IMG/VR virus record: IMGVR_UViG_3300031521_000066
DNA length: 60,759 bases
Source: a virus
Strand: one strand, 5' to 3'
Positions 2,262-56,254 of the stretch are shown in pieces; position 1 is the first letter of the stretch; each line of letters opens with the position of its first letter. Under the pieces are notes generated by a model. The model was not told the origin of the DNA. It ran no database searches and was given only the letters and a program-made list of their open reading frames with translations. The translations under genes and the position numbers were made by a program.

Positions 2262-2579
2262 TTAAACAATTTTAAAAGTGTGTAAAATAATAATTGAAAT
2301 TATCACAACAACAAATAATAGCATCGTAAAGCATCCCATTTTTTCATTATCCGCTTGTTGCCTTTCCGATCTTCCTTGAAAATCAACGACGGTTTTATTT
2401 CTGTAGTTTCTAACTGGTCTTAATGTTTTGAAATTATAGAAATACAGGAAGGTTAAGTAGGCCAATGTTCCGGTAGTATATCCAATTGCAAAATTTATTC
2501 TATTAACAATACATAAGACAATTATGCTAATAATAACAACTTGCAAGACGATAGATTTAAAGGCTTCAATTGTTTTCAT
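2262..2579 (-). CDS. hypothetical membrane protein
   Basis: 105-aa ORF with ATG start and about 3 hydrophobic segments (VLQVVIISIIVLCIV, TLAYLTFLYFY, MLLFVVVIISIIIL). Confidence 0.55.
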   Translation of the reverse strand: MKTIEAFKSIVLQVVIISIIVLCIVNRINFAIGYTTGTLAYLTFLYFYNFKTLRPVRNYRNKTVVDFQGRSERQQADNEKMGCFTMLLFVVVIISIIILHTFKIV

Positions 2580-2581
2580 AG

Positions 2582-2722
2582 TTATAGTTGTTTTAAAGTG
2601 AATATACTCAAATAGATTTCAAACCCTGTCATACAAAACAGGAAGGCTGAAATAATTAAAACAGCCGTCCATAATATTTTCAGCTCTCTTTGTATCTGTT
2701 CAATTGTGAGTTCCCTTTTCAT
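2582..2722 (-). CDS. small membrane protein (start uncertain; the track extends to a TTG at 2845)
   Basis: The ATG at 2722 gives MKRELTIEQIQRELKILWTAVLIISAFLFCMTGFEIYLSIF, with one TM segment. Confidence 0.4.
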   Translation of the reverse strand: MKRELTIEQIQRELKILWTAVLIISAFLFCMTGFEIYLSIFTLKQL

Positions 2723-2978
2723 GAATATAAGTTTTAAGATTATTTTTGTTCCGTTACCATTGCTATCCCGCAAGCTAACAGAAAGATTAATAATGCAATT
2801 CCTAAGTAAATCATAGTGGTAAATTTTTAAATTAGTCTCACCCAAAAACCCCGCATCGTGTTAGGATTGCGAGGCTGGTTATTTTCAGAGTGAATTATAT
2901 TCCTCAATTAAGCTTGCATTAAGTGGGCTTAGATTTTTTTGCAAGTTTTACGTGATTGATTAGTTTCAAACACAGGTC

Positions 2979-2986
2979 CAAAGATA
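2979..2986 (-). promoter_or_regulatory. candidate Bacteroidota-type -7 promoter box (TAnnTTTG)
   Basis: Plus-strand caaagata is TATCTTTG on the minus strand, in the 415-bp divergent non-coding region. Confidence 0.3.
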
Positions 2987-3100
2987 TTACATTTAAGTAA
3001 TATAAAATAGCTTTCTTCATGTTTTGCAACATAAAACGTAAAATAATTCCATCGTAAGTAAAATTATTCGAATACCTATTGTTATTTCAAAAACTATTGC

Positions 3101-3108
3101 TACTTTTG
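3101..3108 (+). promoter_or_regulatory. candidate Bacteroidota-type -7 promoter box (TAnnTTTG)
   Basis: TACTTTTG at 3101-3108, about 110 nt upstream of the intrinsic terminator at 3218-3245. Confidence 0.35.
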
Positions 3109-3113
3109 TGTGT

Positions 3114-3245
3114 CGGATTAATCAACCGGTTCAAGGAATGAGTAGAAAATATAAATATTGCAATTTTAGGCGCAACCTGCGCACACCGATAAATACTTTC
3201 ATTCCTTGTAAGATTTTGCCCGCCCGTGATAGGTGGGCTTTTTTT
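3114..3245 (+). ncRNA. candidate ~130-nt structured small RNA or terminated leader
   Basis: Lies between the TACTTTTG box and a strong terminator. Has a 9-bp perfect stem aaggaatga/tcattcctt (3133-41/3199-3207) and an inner gcgca/tgcgc stem. No ORF. Confidence 0.4.
3218..3245 (+). terminator. rho-independent terminator
   Basis: gcccgcc (3218-24) pairs with ggtgggc (3032 offset corrected: 3232-38) including one G-T pair; 7-nt loop; then T7 (3239-45). Confidence 0.6.
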
Positions 3246-7090: not shown

Positions 7091-9322
7091 TCACCATTTC
7101 TCATTCTTCTTCACCTGCGGTTGATCGTACATCTCTGCATGAACCTTTAAAGCAATAGAGTAGGCTAGTGCTGAATTTACTTGATGACCTTCACGTGCAT
7201 CTACTTCTCCCGTTTCTTTCTTCCTTTCAAGATTTTTGATTTCCTCAAACACAGGCTGAGGTATTTCTTTGATCTTATTTGTCTCTATTAAGTCTTTGAG
7301 ATTGTGATATACTTCACGCCTTGTAGACTGATTCACTTCAAACCCATACTCACGCTCTCTTTTCTTGTGAATGTTGTCAACTTTGAGCCTAGAGTAGATA
7401 GAATCATACCTTGCCGCTCTGGCTTCACGAATTGCAATATGCCCCAAGTCTGTTTCTTCGTTGGCAGATTGGCCATATTCATCCTCTACGGCCACCACCA
7501 ATTTAGCAGTAGAATAAAGGGAAGCTATTTCGAGGGCTTTTTTAGCCGCTTTAAGGGGCGCAATCTCATTTGACAGGTACATTATAGGAACAGTACCATT
7601 TAACCTATCGTAGGTAAGGATTACTGTATTCCCTCCACGTTCCCCTTCACCCTTTAAAACTAGCACGGTCAAGTAACGGTAATTGTACAAGTGGTTGGGA
7701 TTATCAAATAGCATCACGTCTCCTTTATCGTTTTCTTCGTACTGTACTTTATATTTGTAGTTCTCAAAGGAAGAGGTAAGTAAACAGTTTACCCAGCCGG
7801 TTACATTATTTTCAAGGTTATTCAATGCCCAAGCTTCTATGAATGTATTCTCTGCAAAGTAGTAGTGATTGATTGCGTAGCCGAGATTGTCAACGTGTTC
7901 ATCGTGACTTGCACGGGGAAAACCGCATATTTGGGTAATGAAATTATCGTTCCAGTTGCCTTTGATGAGTTTACATCGGTGTGATTCTGCTTTAGGTTTG
8001 ATGACCTGGTGTCTAGCAGTGTGTCCCCCGGCTACCAATTTGCTTTCCTGTTTACTGTGTTCACCGATCCGGACAAAGTTATAATCTGTATCAAACTCAA
8101 TATAGTCGGCTAAAGAATTACCCGATGCTTTAGGTTCAATAAATATCCTACCTTTGTCTTTATCGAAGGTTCCATTTGCCACCAGTTCTTTTATGAAGTT
8201 GAGTAAGTCGGGAAGCTTTTTGTACACGTCCCAGGATTCTTTTACTATGATATTATTGCCTTTCCTTTTAATCAAATCTATCCCGGTTGGGTCATTGATT
8301 GTCTTTTCAGTGTAGGCAGCATCAATCCAAAGATCAAATACAATGTCATCATCGCAAGAATCGAGTATTTCAAACATACTTGGCTGTATGTCTTGTTCTT
8401 CCAAATTAAAAGGTGCTTGAAGATACTGACAAGTATAGGGGGCTGAGTTCATTTGTGCCTTTGTAATATCCAATACCTCTCTTGGTCTTCTGATTGGGTC
8501 AAGAAATCCGTTTGTGTATAAACATTCAGCATCTTTAGGAACAACAGGTGAAGCATGGGTAATCTCTGCCGGCAATGAAATTAATGTTATGTGAATATCT
8601 TTCTGTAATGTATAACCAGTTAAATCGTTTTCATGTAATCTTTGGGCTATAATAATATCAAGCCAGGAGTTAGGGTTTATATGTCTTGAGGTTAAAGTTT
8701 CAGCATCCCATTCATTCACGTGTTCACGTTCTGTATCCGATCCGGCTTGCTTTGGGTTTTGCATGTCATCCTTTGCTAAGATATGTGCATGCATCCCGGT
8801 AATTGTTCCATCAACAGAAGTATTAAATCGTTCTCCCCTGAAATTATTCTGTATCTCATTCATATTTTGAGACACAATCTCAAGTTTTTTCCCGTATTTC
8901 AATATGAAAAGGTTATCAAATAGTAAATGCCATTTATCGCTATCGGTTATAGCCCGTGCCTTTTTGGCATGACGTTCAGATAACCGGGCAGAGTATGATA
9001 TATTGGTTGAAACAATCATTGGGTTCCATAACCAAACCCACATAGGAAGTGCGATTGTAACTATTGTTGATTTAAGGGATACAGGGGGAACGTTTATGAT
9101 CAATGTCTCCATTGAGAACTCATTCCTTATAACTGGCATTACCTTTTCTTGGATAGCATCACAGATATATTTTATATAAGGAGCATCAACAAATGGTCCG
9201 CCTCCTATTTCTGTCCAAAAAGTCGTTAGAAAAACATATAACGATTTAAAGCATTCGGCCCCCCTTTTTGCCGCTTCCCGCTCTATCTCGTTCGTCCTTG
9301 CTATATCAGTGTGCGATGGCAT
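7091..9322 (-). CDS. terL: terminase large subunit
   Basis: 743 aa. It has a P-loop-like VSLKST segment, an acidic ILAKDD Walker-B-like segment, and a C-terminal DLWIDAAYTEK...DPTGI nuclease-like acidic motif. The start overlaps the upstream stop (TAATG). Confidence 0.75.
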   Translation of the reverse strand: MPSHTDIARTNEIEREAAKRGAECFKSLYVFLTTFWTEIGGGPFVDAPYIKYICDAIQEKVMPVIRNEFSMETLIINVPPVSLKSTIVTIALPMWVWLWNPMIVSTNISYSARLSERHAKKARAITDSDKWHLLFDNLFILKYGKKLEIVSQNMNEIQNNFRGERFNTSVDGTITGMHAHILAKDDMQNPKQAGSDTEREHVNEWDAETLTSRHINPNSWLDIIIAQRLHENDLTGYTLQKDIHITLISLPAEITHASPVVPKDAECLYTNGFLDPIRRPREVLDITKAQMNSAPYTCQYLQAPFNLEEQDIQPSMFEILDSCDDDIVFDLWIDAAYTEKTINDPTGIDLIKRKGNNIIVKESWDVYKKLPDLLNFIKELVANGTFDKDKGRIFIEPKASGNSLADYIEFDTDYNFVRIGEHSKQESKLVAGGHTARHQVIKPKAESHRCKLIKGNWNDNFITQICGFPRASHDEHVDNLGYAINHYYFAENTFIEAWALNNLENNVTGWVNCLLTSSFENYKYKVQYEENDKGDVMLFDNPNHLYNYRYLTVLVLKGEGERGGNTVILTYDRLNGTVPIMYLSNEIAPLKAAKKALEIASLYSTAKLVVAVEDEYGQSANEETDLGHIAIREARAARYDSIYSRLKVDNIHKKREREYGFEVNQSTRREVYHNLKDLIETNKIKEIPQPVFEEIKNLERKKETGEVDAREGHQVNSALAYSIALKVHAEMYDQPQVKKNEKW

Positions 9323-12300
9323 TATTTTATATCCCTCAATATTTGCCTTGCCCGTTCACGTTCCACTTTGGTTGTTGAGGTAGATTTGATTTTGTTCCTC
9401 AACTTCTCCATTAGGATAGGCTTAAGTGTGTTCTTCTCTTTTGAATTGGCTTTCTTATAGATGAAATAGGTCTCTTCATAACTGAAATTCTTAACAGTCC
9501 TTTCAAGACCTGTCAACTTATAGTCTTTTCTTAATTCATGATATTCTTCCTGTGTAATGTTCCCGGCTTTCTTTTCTTCCAAAGCCTTACTATCATCGCC
9601 ACCAGTCTTTCTCATTTCTTTACGAAGGTCTTTCAATAGGTCTGAATGATCTTTCTGTTCAGAGGTACGCCCACCAATAGGAAGCTTTGTTGCCTGAATG
9701 TCATAGGCTGTCTTTTCTGCCTCACTCATATTTAAGTCATAGGGAGCAGGGGTTATACCGAAGAAAGGAAGTATCTTATCCGGCAGGTCTTTATCTGCTG
9801 ATTTTTCAGCGTTACGGATACCAAAAGGAATCAATTGTTTGCCCATGAATTTTAGTTCATCCAATCCTTTTTTGTAGATAGGATCGTCTTCCTCTGTAAT
9901 CTTTGTACCATAAAAATCTTTATTGTTTTCCATTTGGTTCACAATAGAAAAAATTGGAGATAGTTTATTTGTGAGTGTTTTGCCCGGATTCGTGGTATAG
10001 TGATAAATATCTTTCATGTAAGTAGGCATTGATGAACGTGAAGGGTCTCCATTTGGTTCTGTCTCGCCTGTTTTTGGGAAGAAATAATCTTTGCCTTCAC
10101 TCGGAGCTTTACCTGTACGCAAGTATTGATAGATTGCACTAGATAGCATTGTCATACCAACAAGTGAAACAACGTAGGCTATTTTATGTGTATGGTCTGA
10201 TACCTTACCTTGTAAGGCATTTTTAGTTACTCCAAGTAGTTCTTTTGGTGCGCCACCTATTTCTCTAAATGTTCCTAAATTCCAACCTACCGACCGGACA
10301 GAAGCCATCATAATATCTTTTGCTGTTTTATTCCAAAATAAGTTATCATATACCATTTGCCCCATTCGATTATCAACAGACCTCCAAGCGTATTGAAGTG
10401 CCGCCCTTCTTTCAGTAGGTGTAGCATTTGGATGTTCATTCATTTCATAGCGTGCCATATCCATAAATACGCCTAACTTTTGACGTGGTACAACATATTC
10501 CATGATAGGTTTAGATGCTAGCTCGACAAGTTTAAGCGGGAACACAAGTCCGGCTTTAATAAATTTATGATCGGCTAAGGCATTATGAAATTGTTCTTTT
10601 GCTTTTACAGAATAGAACTTATCCATTTGTACACGACCCCCAGCCTGTTCTAAGAATTGTGCTATCTGTTTCATCTCTGGGGTTGCGGCTTCATCTCCAA
10701 ACCAAGCCTTATTTAATTTATTTCCTTGAATAATATTTGTGATAGGGGCTATTGGTGTCATTGCAAAATGTTTAGCGGCTTCTCCTAAATTACCGTTGTA
10801 CATGTATTCTAATCCAAGTCCAAACTTAGAAACTGCAGCATCCATTGAGGTGAATCCTAAGTGAAACGCAGACAATCCAAGTTGTAATTGAGTAATCGTA
10901 TTGCCAAGTCCACGATAAAGATCATAAGCATGATTACCCATTAACCCTTTTGAAAGGAAGTTGTTTAGAACTTGTGCTGCACCTTCCTGAGCATAGTAAT
11001 GACCAACGATCTGCATTCCTTCATCCGTTTTTCTCGATACAGTGCTAACCTTATCATCAATTAAAGTGAATCCTTCAGGTCTATTTGCCCCAAGACGCAC
11101 ATATTTTACCAGTCCTTCAAGTTTAAGTGTGTTGAGGGTTTTATGTGCCATAACATAACGTTCCATATCTCTCACATTTGTAAGGACAGAGGTTATAGGA
11201 TTCCAATCAACAGGTTCTAATCCTTTATCAATGCTTTCTTTATAGGTTTTAACAGTGCGCTGGTTCATCCATTGTTTAGAACCTTCGTAGGGACGTTTAC
11301 TTTTGCCTGAAAATAAAAACTGTTCTGCTTTTTTGGGGTCTTTAAATCTTCTGGGGTAATAATTTTCAATAAACTGATCAAGTTTTCCGGTTCCTAAATC
11401 CCGTACCTCATCTCTTACTTTATCTTGTAATTCCCTTAAAGCATCTGCATATCTTTGAAGGTCTTCATTGCCTTGTGGCCTGCCACCTGGAACAGAAGGG
11501 TCTTCTAATTTATCAATAAAATCAGTAGATTGCTCATGGGTCATCTTGCTAAACTTATCGGTCGCCTCTTTTAGTCGTGCTTCTGATTGATTCATTGTTC
11601 TCTCCATGTGAGACATATTCTCAGTCATATTTTCAGCAGCGATCTTTCCACTTGCCGTAGAAGAAGGGGACAGTGTATTTCTTAATGATTCTGCAAACTT
11701 GTTGTATGATTCTGCTGTCTCGGTTACGCCGGGGACATACGTTGCTGCCCTTTTTAGTTTATCTACTTTACTTGCAGCCTCACCCATCCTGTTTAAATCT
11801 TCGATAGGCTCAATAGGTTTGTTTTTAGGCTCAATAGGTGTCTGACGGAACATCGGCACCCCTTCACTCATTACAGATTGTTTCATTGAAGATGTGACAG
11901 GTAGGGATTGAACGGTTTTGTCTCCTTCTCCTTTTGGTCTTACATATCCTTCATTCTCTTTTAATAACTGATAATATCCTTCAATAGCTTGCTGCCCGGC
12001 TGTTCCCTTATCCTGTTCTATCTTACCAAGTGCTTTCTCTGTGGGTGAATAGAATCCTATGTTGGATACTTTGATTTTATCTTCCTTGTCAGCAATTCTG
12101 AATTTTACTGCCTGATCATTGAATGGCTTCTGTGTATTCCCATTTTCAAACCAGTCTTTCAACCCTTGCTTAGTGGTACGGGTGATCTGGTCTAACCCTT
12201 TCCAGTCAGCAGGGAAAGCCTTTTCATAGGTCTGTCTTGCTTTTGTTACGTTGTCAAAGCCCAACATTACCTTGTGTTCATCGAATAAGCCTGTCTTGGG

Positions 12301-15300
12301 GTTCTTCTGATCGACAACATAGATTTTATCACTTTCGGGTTTATCGCCCATGAAAACGTCTACGTGGTCCTTATCCTTGCCTTTTGTCCCCCGGAAATAA
12401 CCATAGTCGGCAGGTAGTTCACGCTCCCATTCTTTACCGTATGAATCTACACCACGCCTTATTGATCCTTTGGGGTTCTCAATTGAAATATCAAAGCCAT
12501 CAAAGCGGACGTGACCTTTCTTGTAGTTGCCCGCTTTTTTCTGTGCGTCGGTTGGATTGGTGTTTACTTCTTCGGATGCTTTGTTAATGCGGAAACGGAT
12601 GTTATCTACTGAGTAGTTGTCTTTAATGTACTGCTCTATTTCATCAGCAATTTCATCAGAAGAAGAATCTTCATCAAAAGACAAATCGGTTGATGCCCCT
12701 GCGAATTTCCCTGCTGTTGCATTTTTGTTGGCAATAACAATTGTTACATCTGGCCTTCCATTTCTGGGATTATGTGTATGGTCTGCAATGCGGATAGATA
12801 CTTCTCGGTTTTCATTATCGTTTTCATCGTACTGATCTCCGGTAATGTTTCCGTTTTTATCCACATAGACAGAAGAATATTTACCAATTTTAGTATTGAA
12901 CCGATTACCTAAATCTTTTTGAACATCATAAATTAAATCATCAGTATTGGCATTATCGGCTTCACTTTCTGCATAAGTGTAATAATCATCATCTACGGTA
13001 TATTCGTAGGTATCCTTACCTTTCAAAAAGTCGTCAATCTCATATTTAGTAATGTCTTCTGGTTTGAATTCATCGTCACCCGTATTATCAATAATTTCTT
13101 TGATTGGGATTTCTAAATGTTCAGCACTAATTGAAACCGAAGCTCCGGTGTAGTCATAATCATAAGGATTACTTTCAGCATCACTAATAGCTCTATCTAT
13201 GTTTATACTTGTACCCAAAAACTCCCCTGAATTATCCGTGTCAAACCGAGTATTGTAAACAGTAGTGCGCAGTTCGTCGCCTTTTATTTCAAAGTCTTTT
13301 CCATTATAACGCTCATGTTCCTTTTTAAAGTCAGGATTTTTAGCAATCATCCTAAACCTTATATCAGGGTTGCTTTCACTGAAGGTTCCCTGATTGCCGG
13401 TGGAGCTTTTTACTTGATTGGGACTAAATACTGCTGTTGTTGTTTGTCCATGACTTTCAGCGAGTAGTAATCCATCATATTTATACCCTTTTTCATCGAA
13501 AAATTCCTTTAAATCTTCTGCATCTGTCCAGTCGGGTAATCCTAAGTTTTGATCCAATGGAGTACCATTTCCCCATTTATTTATAAATTCACTATCAAAT
13601 ACTTTCTTGTGTTTTGGTATTCTGGTATCAAATGGATTTTCAGCCTTTAAATAAACAGGCATAATGCTTTTACCTGCCAATGTTTTAGCTTCAAGTTCCT
13701 TTTCTGCTTGCCCTACATAATGCGCTCCTTTTGCAGAACTTCCCTCGGCATACATTTCAACATATTCGGGGTTATCAGAAAAGAAAAGTATCCTATCATC
13801 CCTGAATTTATCAAAATCCCTATTTGTGGCATGATACATTACTTTAGGATTACCGTTTTCATCGGTTATCTTAGAGCTTCCAAACCAACTTTTGAATTCA
13901 GGGGTTTCGGGTAGCTTGTCGGAGAGACGGAAACGAATGAATTCACTTTGAACAGGCTTAGTTCCTTCTTGATAATAATCTCTTATGTCATTAAGTATTC
14001 TTGAAGCGGGTGTTTTTACGCCATACTCCATACTGAAAGTAGTTCCATATTGACCGGGTTCAGAATAATCAACAAGCATTCCTTGAAAATCTCTTTGTCC
14101 TTGGCTTGCGTTAATATATGAGCGAAGCGTTTTGTATTGTTCTGGTGTTGGTTCTTTTGTTACTTCGAAGCCATTTGATTCACCTTTCATTCTAATATTG
14201 CCACTTGCCATGAATTTAACCATATCCATATCAGAGTTTTCATCTGCCGAACTAATTTCCCTGTGATCTTCTGCCCTGCCTTGTGGATAAGTATTACCAT
14301 GTTTCCTACCGGAGAAGTCAAGCATAGTGCCATCATTCAATAAATAACCTGCTTCATAGAAATTATTAGTGGTTCCAACGTATCTCTTTGTTTTAGTAAT
14401 GAATTTTTGATCATCAGTTTTTTCGGCTTTTGGTTCTTTTTCTCCAAGTACTTTCTCAAATGCCTGTAAGTGGTTATCATATACCTGTCTGCTTTTAACA
14501 TTATCAGTAAAATATTTGACCCAATCAGAAGTAGGTCTTGGTGCAAATCCTTGCTTGGTTAAGTTTTTATTGATAGCATCCCATTGTTTATCTGAAATGT
14601 AAGCAGGATTATAATATCCCCTGTCTTCTACTTTTACAAATGGTGTTTTCATTAATTCAGGAATAAAATCACCTGCTTTTAATTTATCACCATCCTTTAA
14701 AACACTGTTATGATACCATTCACCATTTACTTTTACTTGATCTCGGTGTACTTCTTCTACTTCGGGCATTTTATCCTGAAGTCTCATTCTCACATTCCCT
14801 TCGCCTTTACCATTAACCTTTTGCCCCTCAGTCATCCTCTCTCTTTGCTCTTTGATGATATTTAACAAATCGTTTTGAGTAAATTGATTTGATGTTAACC
14901 CAAATGTTTTACGAACGAGATGAACCAATCTGTCAACAAAACTTTGCCATTTGGAAGGTATGGTTTCACTCTCTGAAAGATGCGATAGAAATTCATCGGC
15001 AATCATTTGCTTATCGTTATCGGCTAGATTTTCTTTACCTGAATAGTCAGGGACATAATCTTTAGCAACCTTATCAATATCTGCCGGTTCCATGCTATCA
15101 AATACATCTGACATTAAGTCATTAAACTTTGTGTATTGTCTGCCAATAATGCTTTGAGGGTCTCCGTTTGCAAATAACTCCCTTAATCCTTTGTGGTTTG
15201 CTTCATGAAGGAATGTTTTCTTTGCCTCTGATACGGCATGGATTCTATCGGATACAATGTAAATCTTTCCATCTTCAGGGTTATAAAACCCTGTCGTTTC

Positions 15301-18300
15301 TTTTCCTGCTGCAATCCTTTTCCTTTCCTCTTCCTGAACGTTCTTGGGTATCTCTGAAGAGTTGACTATTTCAACGGGTCTGTTTAACTCTGAGCTTATC
15401 TGATTGAGTGCATTGAGTGCGTTACGTTTCTCTTTTAAGTCTTCGGCTGCCTTAGCGGTTATGTTGAGTAGTTTTGGTTCTCCGGTATCCTCTTTCTTTA
15501 CACGGTAAACAAACCCATCTTCTCCTTTTACCTTTACCCTATTACCTAAGTCTTCAATGACAGTTCCATTCTTTTCATCCCCGGAAGGCGTGGTAAAAGA
15601 AACCTGTTTTGGTTTATATTTTGAGTTATCAACATTTGATTCTTGCAAATTATTTTCACCACTTTCAGTACTACCCTCTGTATTTACTGGTGTTTCAGAA
15701 GGCATTTGGTTAACATTTTCGTTATTAACATCTGAATTATTATTTTTTTCGGGAACTTTTTTAATGTTTTTAGTCGGTTCTGCTGCCTGATCAACAGGGG
15801 AAGACTGAATTTTTTTAACTTCTAATACATCGGGGTTATAAACAACTAATTCACCATCTTCATACAACCCATCATATCCCTGTTCTTTTAGCTTATCTAC
15901 TACCTCTGGATTACGTCTTAATATATCTCTTGGTAATAAGTTATCTAATGATAATCCAGCATCAATTCGTTCCTGTGCTTTGCGTTTTCCTGCTTCTGTG
16001 TTTTCGACTGCCCATTCTACGAAAGTATCTCCATATTTACCATTTGGAGTATCTTGAACTTTAAATATTTTAGCTTGTGGGGTTAATGCAACTTCAATTT
16101 TATTTTTACCATAGTTCTCTATTTTAAAAGAACCTTTTTCTTGAAGATAAAAGCCTTTACCTAACCAAGAATCACCTTGACCACTTCCGATTTTAGATAA
16201 ATCAAAACTGTCAAAATTATCTGCATTAGTTTCATGAATAAAAGTCTTATTGTTAATGTTAGGATTAATAGAAGCACCCCCTCCGGTTTGCTCTTCAGGG
16301 GTGCGTTCTGGTGATTCAGGTAATTGAGTGGAACGAGAAACATCTTCTACTGATGTAATTTCTGTTGGCTGTTCAACTTTATTTTCTGTTGCCGTACCAT
16401 TCTCCGCAACTGGTGTATTTTCCACGTTGTCGATACCTGCGTTGTCTTGCTGCTCTCCGGTTGTGTTTTCATCTTCAGTATTTTTAGGGTTCAACACATC
16501 ATCAATCTTTTGAACTTTTTCATTCAAAGTTTTAATTTCACGGGCTATATTGGCTTTTTCATTTAGGGAAGTAGATTTCAACCTCTTTGTAACGAGCTTT
16601 TCAACCTTATCTTTTGCGGCCTGTTGTAGTTCAACCAGGGTATTATTTGTTTCTTCTTCACCAAACTCTTTTGAGTATTCACGTTTAAACATTTCAGGCT
16701 CCATAGCATCATAGTCGGGAAGACCATCTTTGTCTTTTGGTATCTCCGGGTGCTGTTGCCTTAATGTTGCTTTGTCTTGTTCTACCTTAGCGGCTTCTGC
16801 CTGTTGTTGTTCCGCTTTCTGCTGTTGCTGTAATTGGATTTTTTCAGCTTCCTTTTGCTGTTCGGCCTGTAATTTCTCATCGGCTTGCTGCTTATCTACT
16901 GCATCCTTTTCAGCTTGCTTCTGTTGGTCAATAGCTGCCTTTTCAGCTTGTTTTTCAGCATCGGTCTTATATGGTTCAATATCAGCTAAAACATAATTAC
17001 CAATATGTCCTTTCTCATTCATGACAGATACCATTCCATCATCACCAATAGCGACTACTTTGGCTATACCATTGGGTGTATGAACGGATTTATCAGGAAT
17101 AATCCCCTTATCGGCGGCTTCCTGTTGTGCTTGCTGCGCTTGTAGGTATTGGTTGTCCTCCTGGTTATCGGTGGCATTACTTTTATTGTGAATATCTTCA
17201 GGTGCTTGACTTGAATAATCTGTTACCATATCAGAGCCAAATGCTTTTATCTCACCGTCTGCATTCTTGGCAAAGATAGCCCTTCCCGGTTGTCCTAAGT
17301 CTTTGCTATTTCTGATATAATATTGTTGACCGTCAATATTGGCAGTAGTTACGTTGCCGTTATCGTCTTTAAATTCATCAATGCCTTTCTGTACTTCAGC
17401 CGCTTTGGCTTTAAACATTGAATTAAGTTGAACTGAGTTTTTAAGATAATCAAGGGCTTTATAATAATCAGGTGTAGTGATATTCATTTCACCACTTATC
17501 TGATTGAAATTATTTATAATGTCTTGCGGATCGGTGTAGTTTTTAACAATGTTATCAACGGCTTCGGTGTAGTTTGCATTGGGAATATCTTTGAATTGTT
17601 CTACCGATTTGGCGTAATCATTCTTTACTTGTGTCCGTGCCTGTACGTTTCGGAAAGCATCCGCTCCTATTTGTGCTGACTTTGTCACGGCTCCAAACAT
17701 TGCCCCCGTTTCGGCTGCATCTTTAGCCGTATTCCACCAATCCTCTGGTTTAATATCCTCACCGATTAAAAATTGATTTGTTGCCTCTTTAGTTAATTGC
17801 ATTGCCTCCATAGATAACACACCATGCCCGACACCACTAGCCAGTTCCTTTACTAATTGAACAGCCTTTGTAGGTTCTTTTTCGGCAAATGAAGCAATTA
17901 CTTTAGATGCAAAGTTCTTGGCTTCCGGGTTATTTATCATTGAAGATGCAATACCATCTACAATTTTACCACCTTTAGGAAGTAATGAGCCCATATATTT
18001 ACCCATTGGAAGAGTGTATGCCAATGCGTACAAGTACCCTGCCGTATTACGGTCATCTTCATTTTCAGGAAGATTATCTTTTGCTCTCTGCTTATCGTAT
18101 TCTTGCCCTCCTTCGCCCAATCCGGACAATCCAAATAATCCAGTAGATAATCCAGCTACTTCAGCCGAACCCGTCAATGCTGATGCTACTGCCGGAACAA
18201 TAAATACAGCTGCAGACCCTAATTTTGAAGCAAGGTTATTTTTTATTGTAGGATCGGGTGCGTTCCATTGGTCTATTGATTTTCTAAATGCTGATTCAGG

Positions 18301-18834
18301 TGGTTTTTGATAACCTTTCTCACCGGGATACATATACTCACCTTTGTCATTTACTACCGCTCCGCCTGTAAGATTGTTTTGAATGTTCTTGCTTACATCG
18401 TCTAAGGCATAACCAGCATTTGCAACAAAATCTTTTGCCGTTGACTTAGCTCCTTTGACAAAATCTTCAGCAACATCTGACTGTATCGGTGTGGGCGCAA
18501 AATTACCTGAAGGTGTTAACGAAGAAACAGGGTTTACTATTTGACCAATTGGCTTAATGGCAGGAATAGGTGTTACCGGTTGGGTATTTGCCCTATCAAG
18601 GCTATCCTGAAATTGGGTGTATTGTCCCGGAGTGGATTCGGATTGCTGTGTAGGTATAAATGAAACCTTGTTTTTATACTCGGGGTATTTTTCGATGATT
18701 TTTGCAGCAAGAACGCTGTCATCTACATCTTTGTAGTCGGGATATTTTTCTTTTATCTTTTTAGAAAATTCCTGAACACTTATAGGTCTTTGTTCTTCTG
18801 CCTGATAATTTGCAGAATTTTCTTGCTCTGACAT
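9322..18834 (-). CDS. giant modular virion/ejected protein of the polyvalent-protein type (3170 aa)
   Basis: One uninterrupted 9.5-kb ORF. It contains Gly/Ala-rich hydrophobic segments, a Q/E/K coiled coil, two H-Y-E ART-like modules, an HEANH zincin, a pyrophosphatase-fold module and a long hydrophobic C-terminal region. Confidence 0.85.
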   Translation of the reverse strand: MSEQENSANYQAEEQRPISVQEFSKKIKEKYPDYKDVDDSVLAAKIIEKYPEYKNKVSFIPTQQSESTPGQYTQFQDSLDRANTQPVTPIPAIKPIGQIVNPVSSLTPSGNFAPTPIQSDVAEDFVKGAKSTAKDFVANAGYALDDVSKNIQNNLTGGAVVNDKGEYMYPGEKGYQKPPESAFRKSIDQWNAPDPTIKNNLASKLGSAAVFIVPAVASALTGSAEVAGLSTGLFGLSGLGEGGQEYDKQRAKDNLPENEDDRNTAGYLYALAYTLPMGKYMGSLLPKGGKIVDGIASSMINNPEAKNFASKVIASFAEKEPTKAVQLVKELASGVGHGVLSMEAMQLTKEATNQFLIGEDIKPEDWWNTAKDAAETGAMFGAVTKSAQIGADAFRNVQARTQVKNDYAKSVEQFKDIPNANYTEAVDNIVKNYTDPQDIINNFNQISGEMNITTPDYYKALDYLKNSVQLNSMFKAKAAEVQKGIDEFKDDNGNVTTANIDGQQYYIRNSKDLGQPGRAIFAKNADGEIKAFGSDMVTDYSSQAPEDIHNKSNATDNQEDNQYLQAQQAQQEAADKGIIPDKSVHTPNGIAKVVAIGDDGMVSVMNEKGHIGNYVLADIEPYKTDAEKQAEKAAIDQQKQAEKDAVDKQQADEKLQAEQQKEAEKIQLQQQQKAEQQQAEAAKVEQDKATLRQQHPEIPKDKDGLPDYDAMEPEMFKREYSKEFGEEETNNTLVELQQAAKDKVEKLVTKRLKSTSLNEKANIAREIKTLNEKVQKIDDVLNPKNTEDENTTGEQQDNAGIDNVENTPVAENGTATENKVEQPTEITSVEDVSRSTQLPESPERTPEEQTGGGASINPNINNKTFIHETNADNFDSFDLSKIGSGQGDSWLGKGFYLQEKGSFKIENYGKNKIEVALTPQAKIFKVQDTPNGKYGDTFVEWAVENTEAGKRKAQERIDAGLSLDNLLPRDILRRNPEVVDKLKEQGYDGLYEDGELVVYNPDVLEVKKIQSSPVDQAAEPTKNIKKVPEKNNNSDVNNENVNQMPSETPVNTEGSTESGENNLQESNVDNSKYKPKQVSFTTPSGDEKNGTVIEDLGNRVKVKGEDGFVYRVKKEDTGEPKLLNITAKAAEDLKEKRNALNALNQISSELNRPVEIVNSSEIPKNVQEEERKRIAAGKETTGFYNPEDGKIYIVSDRIHAVSEAKKTFLHEANHKGLRELFANGDPQSIIGRQYTKFNDLMSDVFDSMEPADIDKVAKDYVPDYSGKENLADNDKQMIADEFLSHLSESETIPSKWQSFVDRLVHLVRKTFGLTSNQFTQNDLLNIIKEQRERMTEGQKVNGKGEGNVRMRLQDKMPEVEEVHRDQVKVNGEWYHNSVLKDGDKLKAGDFIPELMKTPFVKVEDRGYYNPAYISDKQWDAINKNLTKQGFAPRPTSDWVKYFTDNVKSRQVYDNHLQAFEKVLGEKEPKAEKTDDQKFITKTKRYVGTTNNFYEAGYLLNDGTMLDFSGRKHGNTYPQGRAEDHREISSADENSDMDMVKFMASGNIRMKGESNGFEVTKEPTPEQYKTLRSYINASQGQRDFQGMLVDYSEPGQYGTTFSMEYGVKTPASRILNDIRDYYQEGTKPVQSEFIRFRLSDKLPETPEFKSWFGSSKITDENGNPKVMYHATNRDFDKFRDDRILFFSDNPEYVEMYAEGSSAKGAHYVGQAEKELEAKTLAGKSIMPVYLKAENPFDTRIPKHKKVFDSEFINKWGNGTPLDQNLGLPDWTDAEDLKEFFDEKGYKYDGLLLAESHGQTTTAVFSPNQVKSSTGNQGTFSESNPDIRFRMIAKNPDFKKEHERYNGKDFEIKGDELRTTVYNTRFDTDNSGEFLGTSINIDRAISDAESNPYDYDYTGASVSISAEHLEIPIKEIIDNTGDDEFKPEDITKYEIDDFLKGKDTYEYTVDDDYYTYAESEADNANTDDLIYDVQKDLGNRFNTKIGKYSSVYVDKNGNITGDQYDENDNENREVSIRIADHTHNPRNGRPDVTIVIANKNATAGKFAGASTDLSFDEDSSSDEIADEIEQYIKDNYSVDNIRFRINKASEEVNTNPTDAQKKAGNYKKGHVRFDGFDISIENPKGSIRRGVDSYGKEWERELPADYGYFRGTKGKDKDHVDVFMGDKPESDKIYVVDQKNPKTGLFDEHKVMLGFDNVTKARQTYEKAFPADWKGLDQITRTTKQGLKDWFENGNTQKPFNDQAVKFRIADKEDKIKVSNIGFYSPTEKALGKIEQDKGTAGQQAIEGYYQLLKENEGYVRPKGEGDKTVQSLPVTSSMKQSVMSEGVPMFRQTPIEPKNKPIEPIEDLNRMGEAASKVDKLKRAATYVPGVTETAESYNKFAESLRNTLSPSSTASGKIAAENMTENMSHMERTMNQSEARLKEATDKFSKMTHEQSTDFIDKLEDPSVPGGRPQGNEDLQRYADALRELQDKVRDEVRDLGTGKLDQFIENYYPRRFKDPKKAEQFLFSGKSKRPYEGSKQWMNQRTVKTYKESIDKGLEPVDWNPITSVLTNVRDMERYVMAHKTLNTLKLEGLVKYVRLGANRPEGFTLIDDKVSTVSRKTDEGMQIVGHYYAQEGAAQVLNNFLSKGLMGNHAYDLYRGLGNTITQLQLGLSAFHLGFTSMDAAVSKFGLGLEYMYNGNLGEAAKHFAMTPIAPITNIIQGNKLNKAWFGDEAATPEMKQIAQFLEQAGGRVQMDKFYSVKAKEQFHNALADHKFIKAGLVFPLKLVELASKPIMEYVVPRQKLGVFMDMARYEMNEHPNATPTERRAALQYAWRSVDNRMGQMVYDNLFWNKTAKDIMMASVRSVGWNLGTFREIGGAPKELLGVTKNALQGKVSDHTHKIAYVVSLVGMTMLSSAIYQYLRTGKAPSEGKDYFFPKTGETEPNGDPSRSSMPTYMKDIYHYTTNPGKTLTNKLSPIFSIVNQMENNKDFYGTKITEEDDPIYKKGLDELKFMGKQLIPFGIRNAEKSADKDLPDKILPFFGITPAPYDLNMSEAEKTAYDIQATKLPIGGRTSEQKDHSDLLKDLRKEMRKTGGDDSKALEEKKAGNITQEEYHELRKDYKLTGLERTVKNFSYEETYFIYKKANSKEKNTLKPILMEKLRNKIKSTSTTKVERERARQILRDIK
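12115..12537 (-). other. inorganic-pyrophosphatase-fold module of the giant protein (aa ~2100-2240)
   Basis: ISIENPKGS...LPADYGYFRGTKGKDKDHVDVFMG...IYVVDQKNPKTGLFDEHKVMLGF parallels the family I PPase pattern E.P.G / YG(Y/F) / DGDP.DVLV / D....D.K. Confidence 0.55.
13330..13857 (-). other. ART-like (H-Y-E) module 2 of the giant protein (aa ~1660-1835)
   Basis: VMYHATN ... ILFFSDN ... DGLLLAES, the arrangement seen in ADP-ribosyltransferase-like domains of polyvalent proteins. Confidence 0.45.
14800..15400 (-). other. zincin metallopeptidase module (HExxH) of the giant protein
   Basis: KKTFLHEANHKGLRELF; the HEANH codons lie at 15193-15207 (aa 1210-1214). Confidence 0.55.
15805..16257 (-). 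other. ART-like (H-Y-E) module 1 of the giant protein (aa ~860-1010)
   Basis: TFIHETN (His 867) ... GKGFYLQEK ... DGLYEDGELVVYNP. Confidence 0.4.
16745..16960 (-). other. Q/E/K/A-rich coiled-coil, low-complexity segment of the giant protein
   Basis: QQKQAEKDAVDKQQADEKLQAEQQKEAEKIQLQQQQKAEQQQAEAAKVEQ. Confidence 0.6.
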
Positions 18835-18846
18835 ATTATTATAGTA

Positions 18847-20133
18847 TTAAAGTCCTAAATTCAATGGATCATTTTTGGATTGTGGTGTTTGTTGTTGTAC
18901 TGGTGTATTTTGATTGTCCGGTTCAATAACCTGACCGGGGCTTTGTACTTCAGGCCAGGTCTTATTTGGTGCGCCTGTGGTTTCCCATCTTAAATATGCC
19001 TGAAGCAAATTCTGGTCTGTTACTTCCTTACCTAATTCATCAACTACAATTGTTTTTGGTTCTCCATCTTCACCTATAACATTTTTATAAGTTTGATGTA
19101 AGGCCGTTTGAATATACTTTTTGAATTCAGGGTTCGTTTTTGCCCGGCTAATAATATCCCTTTGTTCTGGCTTAGGTATCACCCTGTTAATGGTTTGACC
19201 ATTTGCAGCCTGATAGGTGATGTTTGGAGAACCAAACTTATCTTCCTCTTCGGCTTTCTTAAGACTATTCTCCATTGCGGCTATCTTTAATGCAGTATCA
19301 TTATTCATGCCAGTTGTTTTAACATGGGTTGAATTTGCATCATCGGAAATAGTTTTCTGGTTTGCCAATTGGTCACGTAGTTCCTGATACTTCTGCCGTT
19401 CAGATTCTTTTAACTGGTTACTTTTTAGTTGGTCATCTACCCAATCCATCATTTGTTTATGGTAGTTGTTCTCCCAATTATTAGCAGTTTGTTTATTTGC
19501 TTCTGATATGTTTTTGTAGTTCTGGAACTCTTCGTCACGTGCTTTCTGAATACTTGGAGCGGCTAAAGTATCGGGGTTAATTGTTCTTCCTCCAATACCT
19601 GCCCCAAAAATAGCAAGAGCATCCGCCCATTTAGCTGCTCTCTGTAAGCGCGCGGTACGTTTTTCTTTGTCTGCATTTAATGTAGGTGGGGTTACGTAAT
19701 TTGGGTTTGGAATAGAAGCTGCATATTTTGCAAGGCTTTCCCTATTTTCTTGTGGAACTAATGCTGATATTTTATCTGCCATTGCAGTCTTATCGGTATC
19801 CGTAAGAGGGTAAGCATAGGGCTTATTTAAATCAACACCTATTTTATTTGCCGTATTGGCAACGATATTAGTATCCTTTGCATCCCTTACAGACTGTCTA
19901 TTCACCCTGTTTTGAATAGCTAATTGTCCTGACGGAAGGTCTTCATCCTTCATGTTATCAATAGTATTCTGATTCTGACTTTTCAATTTGTCAATATCGG
20001 TGTGCTGAATAGGATTAACAGGTGTTGGTGTTATTGTTAGTGGTGTTGCTACTGCGGGGGGTGCTGTTATCTTTTGAACATCCAACGGATTTAGCTTTTT
20101 GATATTGTTTTCGGGTTCCTGATTGGTATCCAT
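18847..20133 (-). CDS. putative internal virion/ejection protein (428 aa)
   Basis: ATG start; Q/N/T-rich; the middle gene of the 158-, 428- and 3170-aa operon upstream of terL. Confidence 0.5.
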   Translation of the reverse strand: MDTNQEPENNIKKLNPLDVQKITAPPAVATPLTITPTPVNPIQHTDIDKLKSQNQNTIDNMKDEDLPSGQLAIQNRVNRQSVRDAKDTNIVANTANKIGVDLNKPYAYPLTDTDKTAMADKISALVPQENRESLAKYAASIPNPNYVTPPTLNADKEKRTARLQRAAKWADALAIFGAGIGGRTINPDTLAAPSIQKARDEEFQNYKNISEANKQTANNWENNYHKQMMDWVDDQLKSNQLKESERQKYQELRDQLANQKTISDDANSTHVKTTGMNNDTALKIAAMENSLKKAEEEDKFGSPNITYQAANGQTINRVIPKPEQRDIISRAKTNPEFKKYIQTALHQTYKNVIGEDGEPKTIVVDELGKEVTDQNLLQAYLRWETTGAPNKTWPEVQSPGQVIEPDNQNTPVQQQTPQSKNDPLNLGL

Positions 20134-20161: not shown

Positions 20162-20638
20162 TTAAGCACCTGTTGCTCCTGCCTTCATTATACTACCTAA
20201 CGCAGTTCCGCCACCTTGCATGGTATTGCTGATAGTATCAATCCCTTTAAAGAAGCCGTCCCATTGTTTGTCTATTGCGCCTACCTTTATATCAGCCGAA
20301 GTTCCCATTTCTTTTAATTGTAGGGCTTTCAACTGTTCAAGTTGTGCATTCCTGTTAGCTTCTGCACCTGTGGCTATATTACCTGCTGCCCCTGCCATTG
20401 CATCGCTAGCCTGACCTTGTGCCGCTACCATTGCTTCGGGGCTTGCATTTGCGCCCATTACATTCATAGACCGGTTATAATAATCTTGTGCGCCTTGTGA
20501 TGCTTTAACCATTGCAGATTTAGAGGCTGCCGTTTCAAATGGGTTTCCATTTTTTAGCGCATCAATGTCGTTCTGACTTTGATTTGCCATAGCGGTAAAC
20601 TCGTCCGCTATCTTGTATTTTTGATTTGATCCGAACAT
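20162..20638 (-). CDS. putative internal virion/ejection protein (158 aa, Ala/Gly-rich)
   Basis: ATG start; first gene of the minus-strand operon; AAQGQASDAMAGAAGNIATGAEA low-complexity core. Confidence 0.5.
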   Translation of the reverse strand: MFGSNQKYKIADEFTAMANQSQNDIDALKNGNPFETAASKSAMVKASQGAQDYYNRSMNVMGANASPEAMVAAQGQASDAMAGAAGNIATGAEANRNAQLEQLKALQLKEMGTSADIKVGAIDKQWDGFFKGIDTISNTMQGGGTALGSIMKAGATGA

Positions 20639-20828
20639 AACCTTAGTATTTTAAGCCCAAAAATAAAGATTAATAGTAAGCGATAATTCTATTATAATGA
20701 CTTGTACTATCTATTAGCGACTTGTAAGCATTAAAAGTATATTACAAGTACCATGTTTATAGTAATATAAAATAAATTTTGATTTTATTTTGTGTCTTAT
20801 TAATGTTAAAATCATAATTTCTCACATC

Positions 20829-34590: not shown

Positions 34591-35127
34591 ATGAAATACT
34601 TATTCATCATATTATTATTTCTTTTTTCCTGCTCAATGGAAATAATTCCTGAAAATAAATCCATAGGGATAGATACGATAACCGTAATTTTTGAGCAGGG
34701 ATTTACCGATGCTGAAAAATTAATTATCGACTTGGAAAAATGCAAAGGTAAACGATTGGGTTTAAATTTTAATAAATACTATTCTCACTGCTCTATTATG
34801 ATTGATTCAATGATTTACGATACCCACCCTAAGCATGGAGTTATATGTAATAAATTTGCACCTAATGATAGAAATAGGGAATTCATTGAAATATCGGTCG
34901 ATAATAAGCAAGAAATTAAAAACAAACTTGATTATCTTGATGATACCGAAAATGTTTACTATTATGAAGGTGTTGTTTTTCAGGGTATTTATATGCAAAT
35001 AGGGATATGGCTTGGCAATAAAGAGCCACATAAATTCTATTGTTCAAAATTAGTTTCTTATGTTTTGGGTTATCCAAATTACTATAAAATGGATATTCTT
35101 GATGTTTATGTAAAAGTTAAAAAATAA
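34591..35127 (+). CDS. permuted papain-fold (YiiX/C92, NlpC/P60-superfamily-like) peptidase/amidase, putative lipoprotein
   Basis: LLFLFSC lipobox. His precedes Cys in the motif order: YSHCSIMIDSMIYDTHPKHGV ... KFYCSKLVSYVLG. Confidence 0.4.
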   Translation: MKYLFIILLFLFSCSMEIIPENKSIGIDTITVIFEQGFTDAEKLIIDLEKCKGKRLGLNFNKYYSHCSIMIDSMIYDTHPKHGVICNKFAPNDRNREFIEISVDNKQEIKNKLDYLDDTENVYYYEGVVFQGIYMQIGIWLGNKEPHKFYCSKLVSYVLGYPNYYKMDILDVYVKVKK

Positions 35128-55493: not shown

Positions 55494-56252
55494 TTATTGT
55501 TCGATAATTGGAACCATTGGAAACAATTCTTCGAACTTTTTAATTTCGGTGTCAATGATAGTATCACGTACCTCTTCGTAGGTTGCTTGCGCTCCCGGAG
55601 AGATCAAAGTAAAAGCCACTTCCTTGCCGTTAATTTGAGCAAAGGTTTCTACTTCGATGATTTCAGCCTGAAACCCCTTCATAATTGGTATTTTCAGATT
55701 GAAAGATTTCGGAAGGTTGGAATTTACAACCTGTTCAAAATTGTCGGTTTTGTCTCCCGATTCTTTTACTGAACGCTGAATGCTGTTATTTACAGTTGCG
55801 GTAAAGTTCAGCAGGTCATTGACAAGTTTCATATTGTCTTCCTTGCTCGTAAAGAAATACCGGTTCATCTTGAAAAATAAACCAAGCTGAGTAGGTGTCC
55901 ATACTTTGCCGGTATTTATTCCAAACTCTTCAAATTTTGGTTCTGTTTCAAGTTTACCAACAACTTGACCCCGGATATAGTCATCATTCTCATTCACAAC
56001 AAGGGTGATAGATACTTTTTCCCGGTTAACAAGGATGTGACATCGGGTAAGGTTCAGTTGTGGCACAATACCATCTGGCTCAGTAAATTGATACCTTTTT
56101 GAGAGGAAGATGAACGGAGCTTGAATAACGCCTCTCAAATCGACTTTAATAGGTGCTTTAGGATCGAGAACCTTTATTGCTGCACCTTCCCGAACTACAA
56201 TTTCTGTTACACCTTCGTGTAGTGTAAAATTGAATTTCTTTTCTTCTGACAT
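55494..56252 (-). CDS. hypothetical protein (252 aa)
   Basis: ATG start, in the recombination/replication neighbourhood; no motif recognised. Confidence 0.55.
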   Translation of the reverse strand: MSEEKKFNFTLHEGVTEIVVREGAAIKVLDPKAPIKVDLRGVIQAPFIFLSKRYQFTEPDGIVPQLNLTRCHILVNREKVSITLVVNENDDYIRGQVVGKLETEPKFEEFGINTGKVWTPTQLGLFFKMNRYFFTSKEDNMKLVNDLLNFTATVNNSIQRSVKESGDKTDNFEQVVNSNLPKSFNLKIPIMKGFQAEIIEVETFAQINGKEVAFTLISPGAQATYEEVRDTIIDTEIKKFEELFPMVPIIEQ

Positions 56253-56254
56253 AA

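Follow-up and report, generated by a model that had tools for sequence, protein, structure and literature searches.

What does a phage do with one protein that takes up nearly a sixth of its genome? The question is raised by IMG/VR record IMGVR_UViG_3300031521_000066, a viral sequence of 60,759 nucleotides (nt; the whole stretch analyzed, called the window here), in which a single open reading frame (ORF) on the minus strand encodes a protein of 3170 amino acids (aa). An earlier note on this DNA had described the product as a polyvalent-type protein, probably a virion-delivered effector. Our results make it likely that this is an ejection protein loaded with cargo, encoded by the third and largest gene of a small-medium-giant cassette in a tailed, probably podovirus-like phage of a Bacteroidota host, analogous to the ejection proteins of phages N4 and T7. 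The evidence comes from its effector-type domains, its conserved C-terminal module, the layout of its operon, and the absence of cysteine from it and its two partners.

A giant reading frame in a closed genome

9322..18834, minus strand: the whole ORF, a polyvalent and putative ejection protein of 3170 aa

The frame starts with ATG, contains no internal stops, and stays open over 9.5 kb at 38% GC. It is one ORF, as the earlier note had it, and makes up 15.7% of the genome; residue i of the protein starts at nt 18834-3(i-1). Identical contig ends are the usual sign of a circularly closed metagenomic assembly. Positions 1 to 127 and 60633 to 60759 of the window are identical (127 bp), which indicates that the contig closes into a circle and that the phage genome, about 60.6 kb long, is complete.

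Homologue searches of the protein were run region by region. Matches in cultured phages were confined to the ADP-ribosyltransferase (ART), InPase, and HEANH regions and to a 46-aa N-terminal motif, and megablast against 50,697 GenBank phage records returned no nucleotide relative of the gene.

Effector-type modules in the middle of the protein

15799..16254, minus strand: M1 (aa 861 to 1012), a mobile module with H867, GFYL, and GELVVYN
14794..15492, minus strand: M2 (aa 1115 to 1347), a predicted zincin metallopeptidase of the polyvalent MPTase type, with HEANH at aa 1210 to 1214
13939..14781, minus strand: M3 (aa 1352 to 1632, core aa 1485 to 1632), an uncharacterized widespread domain
13363..13926, minus strand: M4 (aa 1637 to 1824), an ART-PolyVal ADP-ribosyltransferase domain (Pfam PF18760)
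12601..13350, minus strand: M5 (aa 1829 to 2078), an acidic orphan module
12109..12588, minus strand: M6 (aa 2083 to 2242), InPase, a polyvalent-type inorganic pyrophosphatase fold (Pfam PF18823)

The whole protein was scanned with Pfam at gathering scores and 500-aa segments at E ≤ 10. The profile searches did return enzymatic domains, and two of them are well above their curated thresholds. ART-PolyVal (PF18760) matches M4 at aa 1658 to 1818 (E = 2e-19; 71 bits against a cut-off of 31.2; profile positions 1 to 140 of 140), and InPase (PF18823) matches M6 at aa 2096 to 2229 (E = 7e-55; 185 bits against a cut-off of 26.8; profile positions 1 to 134 of 135), so that the pyrophosphatase fold seen by the earlier note is borne out. 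The segment scan gave nothing credible beyond these two, no Phage_Mu_F or portal domain was detected by Pfam in the 3170-aa protein, and NCBIfam gave no match for it or for the 158- and 428-aa products of the neighboring genes. Of the families that the earlier note had expected from Pfam, ART-PolyVal was found, whereas LPD and metallopeptidase families were absent and Family I inorganic pyrophosphatase (PF00719) matched M6 below threshold (E = 0.016; 15.5 bits against a cut-off of 23.5). M6 is assigned by sequence to a distinct PolyVal InPase clade. Its sole sequence relative in the PDB is the unresolved C-terminal part of the Pa193 portal protein gp19 (E = 1e-27).

Matches to M4 found with tblastn lie in large proteins of Caulobacter, Pseudomonas, Helicobacter, and other phages. 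A manual comparison with four other ART-PolyVal sequences shows Phe in strand 2, where Tyr is usual. M1 copies that are 57 to 78% identical occur inside other multidomain proteins, and the ART-PolyVal profile aligns colinearly, though below threshold, with four of five M1 homologues (E = 8e-5 to 0.28); for the copy in the window, Pfam gave nothing at E ≤ 10. Alignment of M1 with ART-PolyVal domains by hhalign gave a probability of 91% (E = 1e-6) over the last 35 columns only, and H, Y, and E are conserved across the M1 family. M1 is thus probably a divergent ART-PolyVal-like domain. Of the two ART-like domains in the earlier note, only M4 passes Pfam, and PolyVal ARTs have been described as H-Y-D rather than the H-Y-E given there (PMC5512222).

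No metallopeptidase family was found for M2 in the Pfam scans. The M2 family alignment retains a YI.SD strand, an invariant HE..H.GL helix, and a downstream AEE.lA helix. When the AlphaFold2 (AF2) model of M2 (pLDDT 82) was compared with the PDB by Foldseek, the top matches were all anthrax lethal factor (probability 0.75 to 0.97), plus Zmp1. The family profile also matches aa 2157 to 2349 of N4 gp50, the virion RNA polymerase (E = 8e-7 in a six-sequence test), a segment that falls within the MPTase region defined by Iyer et al. (PMC5512222). The identification of M2 as a zincin, proposed earlier from the HEANH motif, is therefore supported by the profile match to the N4 MPTase region, the modeled lethal-factor fold, and the HExxH motif together.

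M3 has conserved FGtT, LDFSG, R..DHR, GNIR, and PT..Q motifs, and its core is modeled with pLDDT >90. An exhaustive search with M2 plus M3 returned 1438 cluster representatives at E ≤ 1e-3, in proteins of up to 6133 aa, and 122 of the 149 representatives retrieved have BLASTP matches to M3. The domain is also found as solo proteins; these solo homologues have no Pfam match, and Foldseek against the PDB showed no fold match for M3 beyond the zincin matches. M5 has no homologue in a search of 5.8 billion proteins, in GenBank phages, in the IMG/VR loci, in Pfam, or in PHROGs, and the idea that it is a degenerate or cryptic M3 was rejected.

Taken together, the polypeptide holds at least two distinct effector-type domains (InPase, ART-PolyVal, and the MPTase-type zincin), its PolyVal-specific families (PF18823 and PF18760) are above curated thresholds, and it is phage encoded in a late, virion-type gene context, with TerL (the large terminase subunit) in the same operon and an SU10-type capsid protein and a portal protein nearby. 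The polyvalent architecture put forward by the earlier note is therefore upheld.

A conserved C-terminal module, a putative carrier

9325..12096, minus strand: C-terminal region (aa 2247 to 3170), a linker followed by module C1 (aa ~2390 to 3170)

The C-terminal part had been described as a hydrophobic region of about 900 aa. It is only mildly hydrophobic (mean hydropathy of −0.08 to −0.26 over aa 2601 to 2900) with one transmembrane (TM)-like helix at aa 2885 to 2903, and is instead a conserved helical module that follows a linker predicted to be disordered at aa 2300 to 2361. A protein-database search with C1, the last ~780 aa, found 164 homologues (best 51% identity, E = 1e-258), and their alignment contains 53 invariant columns. 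The AF2 model of C1 is mostly helical (pLDDT 80, pTM 0.78). C1 has no sequence match in the PDB and none in Pfam, PHROGs, NCBIfam, or (by tblastn) GenBank phages, and Foldseek against the PDB gave nothing at E below 0.4. Among predicted viral structures (BFVD), the model matches 55, with TM-scores of 0.4 to 0.49, and the annotation in most cases is that of a large polyvalent protein. Cellulophaga phage proteins and the C-terminal half of Escherichia coli phage PTXU04 gp25 are among them, and their cargo includes helicase, Zeta toxin, RelA/SpoT, methylase, and nuclease domains.

At least 80 IMG/VR loci and 35 genome loci carry C1. In the IMG/VR ORFs it is always at the end, and the proteins that it ends span 800 to >4200 aa, with hypervariable N-terminal cargo. 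The protein-database homologues reach at most 1518 aa, and we considered whether the window protein is a uniquely long hybrid. This was rejected: the median C1-bearing ORF in IMG/VR has 1748 aa, and many giants of 3000 to >4286 aa end in C1, which makes the window protein typical of its family. Two of the loci (L008 and L010) also share its N-terminal region, and L008 has InPase and ART as well. The cargo of C1 relatives comprises ART-PolyVal, Zeta toxin, GGDEF, GNAT, DnaJ, sigma-70, LPD1/3/5/23, DdrB-ParB, MuF-C, RadC, and SLT. Of these, SLT transglycosylase, DdrB-ParB, and MuF-C are virion-associated modules, and some relatives carry SLT or DPBB transglycosylase domains. Because these modules and others recur in reshuffled sets among relatives, the domain combination that the earlier note had singled out is not exceptional but unremarkable in a domain-shuffling family.

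C1 occurs on contigs and in integrated prophages of Bacteroidota, Acidobacteriota, Nitrospirota, Verrucomicrobiota, Planctomycetota, Armatimonadota, Gemmatimonadota, and Megasphaera, with 35 to 59% identity across phyla. It is almost confined to diderm lineages, Megasphaera being a diderm firmicute. A prophage of Megasphaera paucivorans DSM 16981 (L094, NZ_FNHQ01000001.1, 158771-173239, the same as IMG/VR locus L013) encodes a 4052-aa C1 protein that combines SLT, DdrB-ParB, LPD5, LPD1, and MuF-C with C1.

Giants that share the N-terminal region and M2 with the window protein (P0134, P0135, P0171, and others) usually end in a different conserved module of about 950 aa, C2, whose copies are 41 to 73% identical among themselves, and three others (P0132, P0133, and P0137) end in a third module. 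The three end modules have no detectable relationship to one another. Homology of C2 to C1 in particular is unsupported, with hidden Markov model (HMM) scores near zero and hhalign probabilities below 4%. A fold-level analogy between C1 and C2 is possible, since PTXU04 gp25 matches the C1 model. Since giants with this N-terminal region and M2 end in a module unrelated to C1, carrier modules appear exchangeable, and several nonhomologous carrier ends seem, by sequence comparison, to serve the same architecture.

A cassette of rising gene size coupled to the terminase

20162..20638, minus strand: 158-aa partner, small triplet member (0 cysteine [Cys], 19% Ala, 11% Gly; no family match)
18847..20133, minus strand: 428-aa partner, medium triplet member (0 Cys; no family match)
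7091..9322, minus strand: TerL, 743 aa, last operon gene (PHROG 38, E = 8e-55)

The genes for the 158-, 428-, and 3170-aa proteins and TerL form one co-oriented unit with gaps of 28, 12, and −1 nt. The three genes of rising size noted earlier therefore do lie on the same strand in a tight operon, and the giant gene is translationally coupled to TerL: in the junction TAATG, its stop codon overlaps the TerL ATG. The 428-aa protein has one hydrophobic segment (aa 166 to 185). Hydrophobic stretches are weak in both partners, with a maximum KD17 of 0.97 in the 428-aa protein and 0.61 in the 158-aa protein.

The small-medium-giant triplet recurs in about 80 related loci (L001 to L005 and IMG/VR), with products of 260, 491, and 844 aa in L001, of 199, 526, and 1185 aa in L002, and of 159, 474, and 1168 aa in L004. 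Across the IMG/VR C1 loci, the first upstream ORF has a median of 416 aa and the second a median of 252 aa. The 158- and 428-aa partners were compared with their counterparts in related loci, and there was no BLAST-level match. In the closest relatives (L008 to L010 and L090), a portal gene directly follows the giant gene.

Absence of cysteine

Window giant with the 428- and 158-aa proteins: 0 Cys in 3756 residues
Other window ORFs: 179 Cys in 13856 residues (1.29%)
T7 gp15 and gp16: 0 in 747 and 0 in 1318
T7 gp14: 1 in 196
N4 gp50, gp51, and gp52: 0 in 3500, 0 in 644, and 0 in 150
Other large T7 and N4 proteins: 1.2% and 0.8% Cys

The three cassette products contain no Cys at all, and for the 3170-aa giant alone the chance of this is about P = 1e-18. 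The zero-Cys criterion for ejection proteins is an empirical signature computed here rather than a published definition; in the comparison, T7 (locus L088) and N4 (locus L089) tail, fiber, and portal proteins were pooled among the non-ejection proteins. In the C1 family, 113 of 120 proteins are free of Cys, and other C1 giants have 0 to 3 Cys per ~4000 aa. We infer that Cys is selected against because disulfides could trap such proteins on their way through the tail and the oxidizing periplasm. We found no mention of the signature in the N4 paper (PMC13434306), in which the word "cysteine" occurs 0 times.

A recurrent motif between modules

14782..14793, minus strand: VRMR (aa 1348 to 1351), between M2 and M3
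13927..13938, minus strand: IRFR (aa 1633 to 1636), between M3 and M4
13351..13362, minus strand: IRFR (aa 1825 to 1828), between M4 and M5, in the context GNQGTFSESNPDIRFR
12589..12600, minus strand: IRFR (aa 2079 to 2082), between M5 and InPase
12097..12108, minus strand: VKFR (aa 2243 to 2246), between InPase and the C-terminal region

The pattern [IVLM][RK][FM]R occurs five times in the 3170-aa protein against 0.18 expected, a count reached in 0 of 2000 shuffles, and each copy falls exactly between two modules; an example of the linker sequence is ...SESNPDIRFRMIAKN.... VRMR at aa 1348 lies at the end of a low-confidence linker in the AF2 model (model residues 216 to 253). The context of the M4-M5 copy recurs after ART domains in other giant proteins and in P0002, and VKFR/VKFK-type motifs flank InPase in relative P0170. 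In 100 other M2/M3-bearing giants, the pattern [DN][IV]R[FY][SRAQ] is found 68 times against 4.1 expected (16-fold enriched), usually in the form ...NxGxF..NPDIRF(S/R/A)... flanking ART and M3 modules.

A universal punctuation motif was nevertheless rejected. The C1 family shows no enrichment of the motif, none of the further C1 giants examined has more than one copy, and N4 gp50 has none. The motif therefore travels with particular cargo modules. We did not find it discussed in PMC5512222 or in the searchable literature. As a hypothesis, the IRFR/DIRF motif could be the site at which the built-in zincin frees modules; a prohead-protease site or a docking motif are other possibilities.

N-terminal region and charged spacer

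17155..18834, minus strand: N-region (aa 1 to 560), a conserved chassis common to other giants
18658-18795, minus strand: tandem KYP(D/E)YK motif (aa 14 to 59), sequence KIKEKYPDYKDVDD...KIIEKYPEYKNK
18109-18231, minus strand: Gly/Ala-rich hydrophobic segment (aa 202 to 242), with a Kyte-Doolittle peak at aa 205 to 223
16255..16962, minus strand: E/K/Q-rich charged spacer (aa ~625 to 860), no family match

The tandem motif at aa 14 to 59 resembles the beginning of a Maribacter phage Panino hypothetical protein (59% identity) and is the sole part of the N-region with a match in a cultured phage. Fourteen giant metagenomic proteins, as well as L008 and L010, have N-regions that align colinearly with residues ~190 to 830. 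Two compositional features reported by the earlier note are present here, namely, the Gly/Ala-rich hydrophobic stretch and a Q/E/K-rich stretch, in which charged residues make up 35 to 40% across aa ~600 to 800. The spacer has no family match in Pfam or PHROGs scans and, from its composition, may be a single helix or a coiled coil.

Proposed mode of action and comparison with known systems

In the mechanism that we propose, C1, possibly with the conserved N-region, would be the constant part of the protein and would mediate its packaging close to the portal, carry it through the tail, and contribute to a trans-envelope conduit. The middle would be a beads-on-a-string series of effectors on flexible linkers (the ART-like M1, the MPTase zincin, M3, ART-PolyVal, M5, and InPase). 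After ejection with the DNA, the modules would act on host targets, likely by ADP-ribosylating host proteins and by hydrolyzing pyrophosphate or a nucleotide-like signal, and the zincin may cut the chain at the recurrent linker motifs, freeing the modules.

For polyvalent proteins, delivery together with the DNA has been predicted and a self-processing protease role suggested for the zincin, and DarB and Dar-related proteins of P1 are packaged in the virion (Iyer, Burroughs, Anand, de Souza, and Aravind 2017, PMC5512222). The 2811-aa polyvalent protein gp47 of phi24B is abundant in virions by mass spectrometry and has been proposed as an ejection protein; PTXU04 gp25 is essential. Like these proteins and P1 DarB/DdrB, the window protein is a giant chain of InPase, ART, MPTase zincin, and LPD-like modules whose gene lies among late or virion genes. 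It differs from them in that no LPD family held by Pfam was detected in it, and in that it ends in C1, a module without a Pfam model that could not be linked to a named LPD. M3, M5, and C1 all lack a Pfam model and gave no match in the structure and GenBank phage searches, and the linkers carry the repeated IRFR motif described above.

N4 offers the closest parallel in gene order. There, gp52 and gp51 build an envelope-spanning conduit, and the beads-on-a-string gp50 follows into the cell (PMC13434306). Genes for gp52, gp51, and gp50 (150, 644, and 3500 aa) are, like those in the window, three consecutive co-oriented genes in the same size order, all three products are Cys-free, and the giant is a multidomain protein with loosely connected modules and a homologous MPTase zincin. 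However, the cargo here is ART, InPase, and uncharacterized modules in place of an RNA polymerase. Outside the zincin, neither C1 nor the N-region has detectable homology to gp50, and the small partners have none to gp51 or gp52. The constant module in the C1 family is C-terminal, and ejection is proven for N4, whereas for the window protein it is inferred.

The T7 genes for gp14, gp15, and gp16, which precede the terminase in the late region, likewise rise in size; Cys is missing from gp15 and gp16, and some C1-bearing relatives carry an N-terminal SLT transglycosylase, as gp16 does. The window protein itself, in contrast, has no transglycosylase, is 2.4 times longer than gp16, and is loaded with enzymes that would be directed at the cytoplasm. 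The earlier idea of virion delivery and of a position like that of T7 gp14/15/16 thus has indirect but consistent backing from the layout, its recurrence, the TerL and portal neighbors, and the lack of Cys, but apart from the MPTase module no homology was found, and N4 gp52/51/50 is the closer analogue. For the same reason (no homology to T7 gp16, nor to N4 gp50 outside the zincin), the window protein is classed on sequence comparison as an analogue of T7 gp16 and N4 gp50, not as a member of either family. A last parallel is with the portal proteins of Pa193 and E217, which have a C-terminal InPase, and with MuF-toxin fusions, in which a protein inside the head carries an effector; the InPase family is the same, but the carrier in the window is a separate giant protein and not a portal or MuF homologue.

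Weighing of alternative explanations

Several observations weigh against a cargo-loaded ejection protein. C1 and the 428- and 158-aa proteins have no sequence similarity to T7 gp14-16 or N4 gp50-52 (profile and phmmer scores near zero), and C1 has no fold match in the PDB (Foldseek E above 0.4), a search for which the presence of T7 gp15 and gp16 structures in the library was not checked. The small partners have weak hydrophobic segments only and no detectable homologues even in related loci. The giant gene neighbors that of the terminase and points away from the head module; in the closest relatives, its neighbor is the portal gene. The absence of the linker motif from other C1 giants examined and from N4 gp50 means that processing at the motif cannot be generally required. 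Finally, packaging, expression, and enzyme activity of the giant are deduced from sequence and analogy, as is the tail type.

Could the protein instead act in the producing cell, as an anti-defense or host-takeover polyprotein, possibly cleaved by its own zincin, that never enters a virion? All identifiable modules are indeed effector-type enzymes rather than structural folds, no homology to known ejection proteins was found, and PHROGs labels related proteins "DarB-like antirestriction" or "moron/host takeover." However, DarB and related P1 proteins are themselves packaged (PMC5512222). Translational coupling to the terminase in a late-type operon and the proximity of the portal gene in relatives would be odd for such a protein, total absence of Cys is unexpected in the cytoplasm and matches proven ejected proteins, and a nonenzymatic C-terminal module of ~780 aa is kept at 35 to 59% identity across phyla. 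We consider this explanation unlikely. A fixed structural component of the virion (a tail, needle, tape-measure-like, or decoration protein) with enzymes acting extracellularly, for example on the envelope or capsule, would account for the largest gene of the structural region, for a long, helical C1 with one TM-like helix, for the SLT and DPBB domains of relatives, which act on the cell wall, and for the BFVD matches annotated "Structural protein." Yet the substrates of ART and InPase are cytoplasmic (NAD+, and pyrophosphate or nucleotides), the surroundings showed no sign of tail-tube, sheath, or chaperone genes, and hypervariable cargo on a constant module fits effectors better than a length-determining or fiber protein. 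The Cys-free signature is moreover common to ejected proteins, whereas T7 and N4 tail, fiber, and portal proteins belong to the pool at 0.8 to 1.2% Cys. The chance that the protein is such a component seems small to us. That the long ORF is an annotation or assembly artifact, with genes fused by sequencing errors or in a chimeric contig, is extremely improbable. A repeated motif sharply marks the module boundaries and every module is also found by itself or within other proteins, as fused genes might be, but the frame is open for 9.5 kb and Cys-free over its whole length, the contig closes on itself, dozens of independent loci have equally long or longer single ORFs ending in C1, and giants with a colinear N-region, M2, and InPase exist. 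An ejection protein loaded with effector cargo remains the best explanation of the locus.

Phage type, host, and neighboring genes

The module on the plus strand, divergent from the operon, holds an SU10-type major capsid protein and a portal protein. Most structural genes have no PHROGs or Pfam match, and the tail type is for this reason predicted rather than shown. That the phage is probably podovirus-like is suggested by its SU10-type capsid protein and by the P22-type portal of a relative. The nearest matches of TerL are terminases of Riemerella, Croceibacter, and Cellulophaga phages (~31 to 37% identity) and Chryseobacterium (30%), the nearest relatives of C1 sit in Bacteroidota metagenome-assembled genomes, and the GC content of the genome is ~36%, from all of which the host is probably a member of the Bacteroidota. 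No tRNA genes were found in the window by ARAGORN.

Some further features of the window were observed. TerL profiles cover only aa ~10 to 490, and aa ~490 to 743 (7094-7855, minus strand) form an unexplained C-terminal extension of about 250 residues. The putative ejection/terminase operon and the head module diverge from an AT-rich intergenic region (20639-20789). Within it, at 20658-20665 (minus strand), lies a Bacteroidetes-type −7 promoter box, TAttTTTG, which precedes the ATG of the 158-aa gene by ~20 nt. A 1050-aa protein (35131-38283, plus strand) matches an Lcl C-terminal domain at aa 517 to 634 just below threshold (33.8 bits against a cut-off of 34.9) and has weak virion-structural PHROG matches; it may be a tail fiber or receptor-binding protein. 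Between two large structural genes, a 178-aa ORF (34591-35127, plus strand) weakly matches an enoyl-CoA hydratase/crotonase-like PHROG (E = 8e-5); a crotonase/ClpP fold could point to a prohead protease, or the match could be due to chance. There is also a local GC peak at 56001-58000 (0.44, compared with ~0.33 to 0.36 in neighboring 2-kb windows) that covers a 565-aa ORF (56625-58322, minus strand) with 1 Cys only, and the region could be recently acquired.

Implications

Polyvalent proteins are believed to encounter host defenses before any other phage protein does. To our knowledge, almost no polyvalent protein has been studied. The type itself is known, but several modules of this one (M3, M5, and C1) are undescribed, and the locus is a compact, well-delimited example with concrete handles: the C1 carrier family, the abundant M3 domain, the absence of Cys as a predictor, and the linker motif as a candidate processing site. 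Total absence of Cys could serve as a cheap, sequence-only predictor of injected proteins in uncultured phages, and the cultured Megasphaera paucivorans isolate, the sole isolate genome in which C1 was found, is an accessible experimental system for the C1 family.

A broader reading, which we offer tentatively and with more doubt than confidence, is that C1 represents a large, structurally undescribed class of ejection proteins of diderm phages, a general chassis for the delivery of N-terminal cargo ranging from none to effectors of >3400 aa. In the subset with MPTase, M3, ART, and InPase, the zincin would cut at DIRF/IRFR after injection and release the effectors, and M3, in which D-H-R is invariant, would represent a novel family of enzymes for early host takeover. 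If the carrier-plus-cargo logic is true, C1 could serve as a scaffold for delivering engineered proteins into bacteria.

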